IMG/VR virus record: IMGVR_UViG_2718217884_000003
Span: 1-41,128 of that record
Strand: one strand, 5' to 3'
Length of the DNA: 41,128 nucleotides
Source of the DNA: a virus
Taxonomy: Duplodnaviria > Heunggongvirae > Uroviricota > Caudoviricetes
The notes under the pieces are model-generated. The model worked only from the letters and a program-made list of their open reading frames with translations, made no database searches and was not told the origin of the DNA. Shown one piece after another: positions 5,436 through 6,194 of this stretch. Both the position numbers and the translations under genes were made by a program. Position 1 is the first letter of the stretch. Every line of letters starts with the position of its first letter.

Positions 5436-5499
5436 GGTGTACTCCTTATTTATACATAACGAAAAACGCCTCGAGTGAAGCGTTATTGGTATGCATATA

Positions 5500-5530
5500 A
5501 AAAGGCCCTCACACTGGAGGGCAAAGAAGA
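5500..5530 (-). terminator. Rho-independent terminator (tL-like) on the leftward strand
   Basis: Minus-strand hairpin GCCCTC-N6-GAGGGC followed by TTTTTA; between the 156-aa gene and cIII. Confidence 0.5.
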
Positions 5531-5665
5531 TTTCCAATAATCAGAACAAGTCGGCTCCTGTTTAGTTACGAGCGACATTGCTCCGTGTATTCACTCGTTG
5601 GAATGAATACACAGTGCTGTGTTTATTCTGTTGTTTATGCCAAAAATAAAGGTCGACTATGCGTC

Positions 5666-6136
5666 CTAGTAGAATACCCAATTTTCTGTTTCTTGGTTGT
5701 GTCCAAAGTTATATTCAATATCTGGTGTTGATGTATCAATATTCTTCATCCCATCAACAAGAGTTGATACAACAGCCAAATCTTGTTTGATTCTCATTAA
5801 ATGGTATTTCTTCCGGCGCAATAAACTCTCAATGGCAAGTTTCTTCGTTGGGAATGCAAAAGATCTTTCTGCATTTTTTGCTACTTTCTTAATTGCATAT
5901 CTATTTCTCCTTTGTTTCCATTCCCGTAACCACTGATTTGGTGCTGGTTTAAAATCAACAATCCAATGCGCAGGAACCAACCATGCATAATGCTCTGTCT
6001 GATGAAAAGCTATATATTGAAGTGCGAATATTTTGATTCCATCTTCTTCAACTGTCGCCTGGAATCTCCAGAAAACAGGCATTCCATCATGTTCAGTTTC
6101 TGATTCAGGAAAAGGTACGCTCCATGATTTTGTCAT
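5666..6136 (-). CDS. Hypothetical protein in the N-cIII (ral/sieB/ea10) slot
   Basis: 156-aa ORF with strong RBS GAGGTG; AT-rich relative to flanks; no family recognised. Confidence 0.6.
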   Translation of the reverse strand: MTKSWSVPFPESETEHDGMPVFWRFQATVEEDGIKIFALQYIAFHQTEHYAWLVPAHWIVDFKPAPNQWLREWKQRRNRYAIKKVAKNAERSFAFPTKKLAIESLLRRKKYHLMRIKQDLAVVSTLVDGMKNIDTSTPDIEYNFGHNQETENWVFY

Positions 6137-6194
6137 ATCTCACCTCAAATAAGTGGTTTGCTGCCTAATTTCATTTTCTGGCGACCAACACAAG

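Follow-up and report, generated by a model that had tools for sequence, protein, structure and literature searches.

The gene between N and cIII in a 41,128-nt stretch of tailed-phage DNA (IMG/VR record IMGVR_UViG_2718217884_000003, positions 1 to 41,128; Duplodnaviria; Heunggongvirae; Uroviricota; Caudoviricetes; hereafter the window, meaning the whole stretch analysed) is gp45 of phage HK97, a known, long-catalogued and still uncharacterised phage gene. Taken as a whole, the locus is best explained if gp45 encodes an early accessory protein carried as a cassette, and if the non-coding tail behind it is the ral-ea10 spacer of phage lambda with its small RNA (sRNA) PreS. We consider this explanation probable, with appreciable room for others. 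Our confidence is high as to what the gene is and low as to the mechanism of its product.

gp45 is a conserved gene of HK97 and the Shiga-toxin phages

An earlier, sequence-only reading of the window described an AT-rich open reading frame (ORF) of 156 amino acids (aa) between N and cIII, with a strong GAGGTG ribosome-binding site, and called the gene unrecognised. The ORF and its ribosome-binding site are present as described (Table 1). The G+C content of the ORF, 36.9%, is below that of the window (50.4%) and of the adjacent N, cIII, cI, ssb and Rad52-like genes (44-49%). The gene, by contrast, is readily recognised. Its product matches the profile of PHROG 1636 (function unknown) with an E value of 2.3e-111, residues 1-156 aligning with profile positions 1-156 of 156. 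It is 98.1-98.7% identical at the protein level to HK97 gp45 and to L0079 of phage 933W, each encoded directly downstream of N. Equivalents of equal length and 97-99% protein identity bear four names: HK97 gp45, 933W L0079, vb_24B_11c of Φ24B and orf57 of Stx2-86. A further equivalent is present in H-19B as an ORF that its record leaves unannotated. In all five phages the gene occupies the same place after an N gene of the 933W type, and is followed by the same downstream hairpin and tL2a terminator module. We conclude that these equivalents and gp45 of the window are the same gene, with no difference of substance.

The gene was sequenced around 1999-2000 and is listed as 'hypothetical' in the HK97 and 933W records. 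A literature search on gp45, covering its HK97 and Shiga-toxin (Stx) phage equivalents and the N-cIII slot, found no account of it. Among complete Escherichia coli genomes, 593 of 5426 (11%) carry gp45, in up to four copies per genome, and the label is always 'hypothetical protein'. The sequence-only reading thus saw no recognisable family because functional annotation is absent, not because the sequence is novel.

The E. coli copies are 95-100% identical. Full-length orthologues of 57-85% identity were found in Salmonella phages and in Pectobacterium, Brenneria, Cronobacter, Rosenbergiella and Symbiopectobacterium. Comparison of the proportions of non-synonymous (pN) and synonymous (pS) differences gave pN/pS values of 0.05-0.24 among close alleles. 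Between orthologues of 58-63% identity, pS was ∼0.8, which is saturated, against a pN of ∼0.2. Both results indicate that gp45 is a protein under purifying selection and therefore no chance ORF.

A basic protein with a confidently predicted fold

The predicted gp45 protein is of 18.6 kDa, with an isoelectric point (pI) of 9.07 and a grand average of hydropathy of -0.59. Its highest 19-residue Kyte-Doolittle mean is only 0.56, so that no membrane segment is expected; on this point the sequence-only reading was correct. Basic residues are concentrated between positions 76 and 118, which hold 16 K/R, and the median pI of the family is 8.9.

A profile search of 1.84 billion cluster representatives identified a gp45 family of 87 proteins at E<=1e-3, mostly 130-160 aa long and 20-27% identical. 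One distant relative recovers gp45 reciprocally by tblastn, and the family is spread across phages. Two large matches in the same search, P0059 and P0080, are repeat-rich proteins and were rejected as spurious. Conservation analysis, profile scans and the final structural model were based on an alignment of 73 sequences, all of which match the PHROG 1636 profile. The relatives sit solely in PHROGs 1636, 13631, 25384 and 28215, each of them function-unknown. Conserved features across the alignment are an aromatic-basic pair at 23-24, G33, E/Q46-T47, basic residues at 75, 83, 84, 87 (97% conserved), 91/92 and 109, an F-A-F-x-T motif at 93-97, an invariant A101, a hydrophobic heptad pattern along 113-127 and an aromatic penultimate residue. 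Even the distant relatives, at 20-27% identity, retain the length and the motifs.

Scans of gp45 and its 73 relatives against Pfam, NCBIfam and PADLOC gave no significant or recurrent match, even at E<=10. The window protein matched only Cas1_II in PADLOC-DB, at an E value of 0.024, with no recurrent match among the 73 relatives. Searches of PDB sequences with the single gp45 sequence and with the family profile returned chance matches only (E>0.02); reticulocyte-binding protein, IF1 and twinfilin were among these and were rejected as homologues.

An AlphaFold2 model of gp45 from a 22-sequence alignment had a predicted local distance difference test (pLDDT) score of 61 and was discarded. With 73 sequences, pLDDT reached 95.7 and the predicted template modelling score 0.82, and all five models scored at least 91; the co-evolution signal in the alignment is strong enough for such a model. 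The model places long strands between 19 and 55 (19-30, 33-46 and 50-55), a short strand at 83-86, two short helices at 56-61 and 66-74 and a helix of 33 residues at 98-130, with both termini ordered. No fold match was found among the solved structures of the PDB. Comparison with BFVD gave 13 structural matches at E<1e-3, all of them uncharacterised phage proteins, from Erwinia phiEa2809, Achromobacter phiAxp-3, Delftia RG-2014 and from Rhizobium, Sinorhizobium, Tenacibaculum and Cellulophaga phages. Among well-known folds, the model weakly resembles SH3/Tudor, that is, the Tudor/KOW/SH3-like small barrels of PipX, the UvrD/PcrA C-terminal domain and the KOW domains of NusG/Spt5. None of the sequence, profile, PDB and BFVD searches found homology to a characterised housekeeping or structural protein, a possibility that the sequence-only reading had raised against its own proposal. 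We conclude that gp45 has a confidently predicted fold without a solved counterpart in the PDB.

gp45 is a single-gene cassette in a variable slot

gp45 behaves as a stand-alone cassette of one gene. Its place in E. coli prophages is after N, and further cargo can be found both before and behind it: the N-like gene and gp45 may have Ral, an Nmad5-family gene or DUF7167 between them, and a gp17-like 'superinfection exclusion' gene or ea10 can come after gp45. Prophages of Pectobacterium and Brenneria have it immediately ahead of xis-int, and in Rosenbergiella it lies ahead of recombination genes. Some distant relatives are located in prophage early-left operons and others among clustered small early genes; that of the siphoviruses Bas81 and NX263 opens a short operon, with a ParB-like gene next. 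Clustering of the neighbours at 15 loci revealed no conserved partner gene for the family; integrases, DNA methylases and a ParB-like gene were each found at 3 loci.

At five loci (L009, L014, L020, L022 and L023) an orphan DNA cytosine-5 methyltransferase is encoded within a few genes of a distant gp45 relative, in the same early operon. This proximity may reflect no more than the usual make-up of early-left operons.

The sequence-only reading assigned the gene to the position where lambda carries ral, sieB and ea10. Its logic of a variable N-cIII slot was right, and the comparison of slot contents across lambdoid prophages that it proposed refined the picture: gp45 is no alternative to ral, ea10 or gp17, as it was found alongside each of them. 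Ral and gp45 co-occur, for instance, in E. coli O111 prophages. Alignment of family profiles by hhalign gave probabilities of 0.1% for gp45 against lambda Ral, 0.2% against Ea10 and 1.4% against gp17, and hence no relation. Lambda Ral, the classical occupant, shares with gp45 the slot between N and PreS/tL2a; ral is an early pL gene and a non-essential accessory, as gp45 would be too. At 66 aa, Ral is unrelated to the 156-aa gp45. SieB and Ea10 of lambda and gp17 of P22 and H-19B are likewise neighbours or alternative cargo of the same N-cIII hotspot.

The upstream edge of the cassette can be made out. N and gp45 are separated by a 58-nt spacer, which carries the gp45 ribosome-binding site and includes a fossil 3′ end of an N gene of the lambda/21 type, out of frame with the resident N. 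In phage Dewey an identical sequence is the genuine 3′ terminus of the N-like gene, whose stop lies 8 nt ahead of the Dewey gp45 homologue. Since the spacer is the out-of-frame 3′ end of another N allele, we infer a mosaic recombination joint inside an ancestral N gene.

The non-coding tail is the lambda ral-ea10 spacer with a PreS homologue

When the gp45-cIII spacer was aligned with HK97, 933W, Dewey and lambda, 5665..5497 proved to be the lambda ral-ea10 intergenic region. The spacer following gp45 was also considered as a deletion scar relative to Dewey; this was rejected, as ral in lambda is followed by the same spacer. Directly behind the gp45 stop codon, at ∼5666..5642 (-), we observed a degenerate hairpin whose stem (GGACG...CGACC) contains an A:A mismatch; TTTATTTTT comes next. 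Its Dewey counterpart has a perfect stem, GGCCG...CGGCC, and its lambda counterpart after ral is a weak terminator-like site (L004 1296..1281).

LPR1, renamed PreS, was described in lambda as an Hfq-dependent sRNA that is encoded in the ral-ea10 interval and ends in tL2a (bioRxiv 10.1101/2024.10.31.621285). According to the same preprint, PreS is ∼88 nt long, is processed to ∼68 nt and is made in the lytic cycle, where it activates dnaN translation; its loss cuts phage yield two- to four-fold. The window is identical to lambda at 80/80 bases from 5584 to 5505, through the terminator stem. The tL2a hairpin reads GCCCTC-CAGTGT-GAGGGC followed by CTTTTTAT at 5522..5497 (-), and its GCCCTC/GAGGGC stem matches lambda 33933-33950 exactly. 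Counting 88 nt back from the U-tail leads to the base just after a 12-bp hairpin, and the predicted 5′ end was placed there for that reason. The same hairpin, base for base, is found at lambda 34013-34040 and in HK97, 933W and Dewey. Processing there may define where the sRNA begins; the preprint text consulted (bioRxiv 10.1101/2024.10.31.621285) gives the hairpin no role. On these identities, we conclude that 5497..5584 is a putative PreS/LPR1 homologue.

The two intrinsic terminators that the sequence-only reading placed before cIII do exist, a few bases away from where it put them. Their identity had escaped it: the first is lambda tL2a, the 3′ end of PreS, and the second is the cIII-proximal terminator of lambda. 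From the second hairpin to the first base of cIII, the window does not differ from lambda 33493-33512 and the sequence around it; in lambda this hairpin is the ea10-cIII terminator, which we take to be tL2b of the lambda map. Both terminators score as terminator-like in lambda, in HK97 and in the window. They stand only 20 nt apart because ea10 is absent, as it is in HK97 and Stx2-86, whereas in 933W and Φ24B ea10 (labelled 'ssb') follows the tL2a module. The locus therefore resembles the lambda PreS locus in having the same 12-bp hairpin upstream and the same place in the pL operon, and differs from it in that lambda has ral upstream and ea10 downstream, where the window has gp45 upstream and no ea10.

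The 116-nt element composed of the hairpin and PreS (5497..5612) was detected in 2154 of the 5426 complete E. coli genomes (40%), where it reaches 6 copies, and likewise in 318 phage records, at >=95% identity. The sampled records either leave it unannotated or label it 'terminator' only. A scan against Rfam 15, which has no family for it, gave no match. We conclude that the PreS module is the constant element of this hotspot and gp45 one variable insert.

gp45 as a candidate early helper protein

A consensus scan of the coding strand found no promoter-like site except pL, neither between pL and gp45 nor inside gp45. The corresponding scan for terminators found 4 terminator-like sites in the scanned region, against 1.4 expected from shuffled sequences. 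Only two minus-strand sites have U-tails, both of them downstream of gp45, and the layout in HK97 is the same. As the 58-nt gap between N and gp45 contains no predicted intrinsic terminator, the two genes are likely to be co-transcribed. pL would drive both as soon as lytic development begins, apparently before N-dependent read-through, and the first leftward transcript, without N, would end at tL2a and the second terminator, after gp45. In the lysogen the gene is probably silent.

We propose that gp45 would act as a non-essential early helper, binding either a polyanion such as DNA or RNA or else a host factor, via a conserved basic surface that includes R24, K83/84, K87, R91/92, K109 and the RRKK motif at 107-110. 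The effect would be to promote lytic growth or to weaken a defence of the host. The conserved basic positions, the basic pI of the family and the weak SH3/Tudor-like resemblance all suggest that gp45 binds nucleic acid or an acidic partner in the host. Relatives of gp45 occur in N4-like, Ackermannviridae-like and other phages, which we take to be virulent; this distribution argues for a role in lytic development over one in lysogen protection. We favour, as plausible, a role as early host-takeover or counter-defence helper. Of the two kinds of gene that the sequence-only reading associated with the slot, anti-restriction and exclusion, prophage exclusion is disfavoured.

Several points weigh against the explanation of the locus favoured here. 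The fold comparison covers the PDB and BFVD only. Placing gp45 ahead of N-dependent read-through depends on there being no predicted intrinsic terminator, and leaves Rho-dependent termination aside. The tail of the PreS homologue is C+U5, against GA+U6 in lambda, and is thus one U shorter. In this phage the expression, Hfq binding and 5′ end of the homologue are putative.

A broader proposal can be made tentatively, and we would not bet on it: gp45 may be the founding member of a phage-wide protein family, expressed early, that combines a fold unseen among solved structures with a new host-takeover or counter-defence activity (binding host nucleic acid or a defence sensor, say), deployed in the N and PreS transcript of HK97- and Stx-type phages. 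The same joint proposal, no firmer for this part, has the family spanning temperate and probably virulent phages of Proteobacteria and Bacteroidota.

A specific counter-defence protein, that is, an anti-restriction factor or other immune inhibitor which would bind a defence protein and not nucleic acid, as Ral does, is an unlikely explanation, albeit one to be taken seriously. In other prophages the N-cIII slot also carries Ral, the putative nucleotide-modification gene of the Nmad5 family and DUF7167. gp45 is itself AT-rich, cassette-like and patchy in its distribution (11% of genomes), it is apparently among the first genes expressed, with N, and at 5 loci its distant relatives lie near orphan C5-methylases in early operons. 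Against this, gp45 shows no similarity to Ral by hhalign (0.1%) or to any family in the libraries searched, and it accompanies Ral rather than replacing it. DNA mimics of the Ocr/ArdA type are strongly acidic, and the basic gp45 (pI 9.07) is hence none of them.

The notion that gp45 is made in the prophage and protects the lysogen, as a superinfection-exclusion or abortive-infection protein like SieB, P22 gp17 or Rex, is improbable and we disfavour it. The slot does hold sieB in lambda and genes for gp17-like 'superinfection exclusion proteins' in relatives, and the low G+C content of gp45 recalls morons. Morons usually carry their own promoter and terminator, however, and gp45 is not set apart from the pL operon, no promoter-like site being present between pL and gp45 or within gp45. 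SieB is a membrane protein expressed in the lysogen from its own promoter; gp45, with a hydropathy maximum of 0.56 and no promoter-like site but pL, departs from SieB-type exclusion in both respects. PADLOC gave no match for gp45 or its 73 relatives, and lysogen protection would make no sense in the N4-like and other phages that we presume to be virulent.

Also improbable, and slightly more so, is a transcription modulator, whether an accessory of RNA polymerase or of the N/Nus complex with a Tudor/KOW-like barrel, or a DNA-binding regulator of the lysis-lysogeny decision: the weak structural hint speaks for it, and the mobility of gp45 away from N contradicts it. Finally, a non-functional or decaying relic, conserved only through recent spread of the surrounding DNA, is very hard to credit. 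In its favour, the near-identity of the E. coli copies could alone be explained by recent transfer, and the gene has no known function. Against it, synonymous change is saturated, with a pN of ∼0.2, in the intact orthologues of 57-85% identity from Salmonella, Pectobacterium, Brenneria, Cronobacter and Rosenbergiella, distant relatives (20-27%) keep the same length and motifs, and the structure is predicted with high confidence.

Layout of the surrounding region

The immunity-left region of the window is HK97-like, with the order cI, gp49, gp48, N, gp45, terminator, cIII, kil matching that of HK97 gene for gene. Coordinates of the features discussed are collected in Table 1. The queried interval is 100% identical to a prophage of E. 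coli S1. The N gene is the one annotated as N in 933W, HK97, H-19B and Φ24B.

Table 1. Features of the gp45 locus, in window coordinates
Feature	Position	Strand	Basis or remark
pL, TTGACA-17-GATACT	6855..6827	-	hexamers equal to those of lambda pL
N antiterminator gene, 127 aa, 933W/HK97/H-19B type	6195..6578	-	ORF list; upstream slot boundary
Fossil 3′ end of lambda/21-type N, out of frame with resident N	6145..6198	-	translates to ...VTCVGRQKMKLGSKPLI*
Shine-Dalgarno sequence GAGGTG, 4 bases ahead of gp45 ATG	6141..6146	-	direct sequence reading
gp45-family gene, 156 aa, ATG start	5666..6136	-	ORF list and minus-strand reading of 5200..6500
Spacer homologous to lambda stretch after ral stop codon	5613..5665	-	alignments with lambda and Dewey
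12-bp hairpin GTGTATTCATTC-CAAC-GAGTGAATACAC, directly 5′ of PreS-like RNA	5585..5612	-	predicted fold
Lambda PreS/LPR1 homologue (putative)	5497..5584	-	sequence identity; 3′ end = tL2a, stem 5522..5505, U-tail 5504..5497
Second intrinsic terminator, AACGCTTC-ACTC-GAGGCGTT + TTTCGTT	5458..5484 (stem 5484..5465)	-	identical to lambda 33493-33512
cIII thermoregulator/leader, overlapping cIII start	5390..5448	-	Rfam RF01804, 84.2 bits, E 2e-20
cIII gene	5295..5435	-	ORF list and PGAP annotation of identical E. coli S1 prophage; downstream slot boundary

Some further observations concern the genes around the slot. In the E. coli S1 prophage the Prokaryotic Genome Annotation Pipeline (PGAP) calls only the last 22 codons of N (NZ_CP010226.1 1327552-1327620, equal to window 6195..6263 on the minus strand) and labels them as a pseudogene, 'antitermination protein, missing N-terminus', leaving the full 127-aa ORF of the 933W-type N uncalled. 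The interval between cI and N, the place of rexA and rexB in lambda, is occupied by homologues of HK97 gp48 and gp49, both annotated as hypothetical. The gp48 homologue (216 aa; 7073..7723, minus strand) has a hydrophobic C-terminal segment as judged by eye. The gp49 homologue extends over 7711..8118 (minus strand), and its annotated start gives 88 aa (7711..7977). Elsewhere in the window, two tandem phage-borne tRNA genes, tRNA-Asn(GTT) and tRNA-Thr(TGT), are located at 16023..16178 (plus strand).

Significance

Nothing here would surprise a specialist of lambdoid phages; gp45 is nonetheless a well-defined candidate for functional work. The re-reading of the two 'terminators' matters for annotation, as 40% of complete E. 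coli genomes carry the PreS module, with cargo such as gp45 inserted around it. In HK97 and the main Shiga-toxin phages (933W, Φ24B, H-19B and the Stx1/Stx2 converting phages), gp45 itself would belong to the leftward transcript that is made first. About one in nine complete E. coli genomes carries it, and it has neither an assigned function nor a Pfam family nor a solved structure, which is equally true of its relatives. As a small soluble protein with a confident model, encoded by genetically tractable phages, it is a well-defined and cheap target. It suits present efforts to find phage proteins of counter-defence and host takeover, and is relevant to the early biology of Stx prophage induction.

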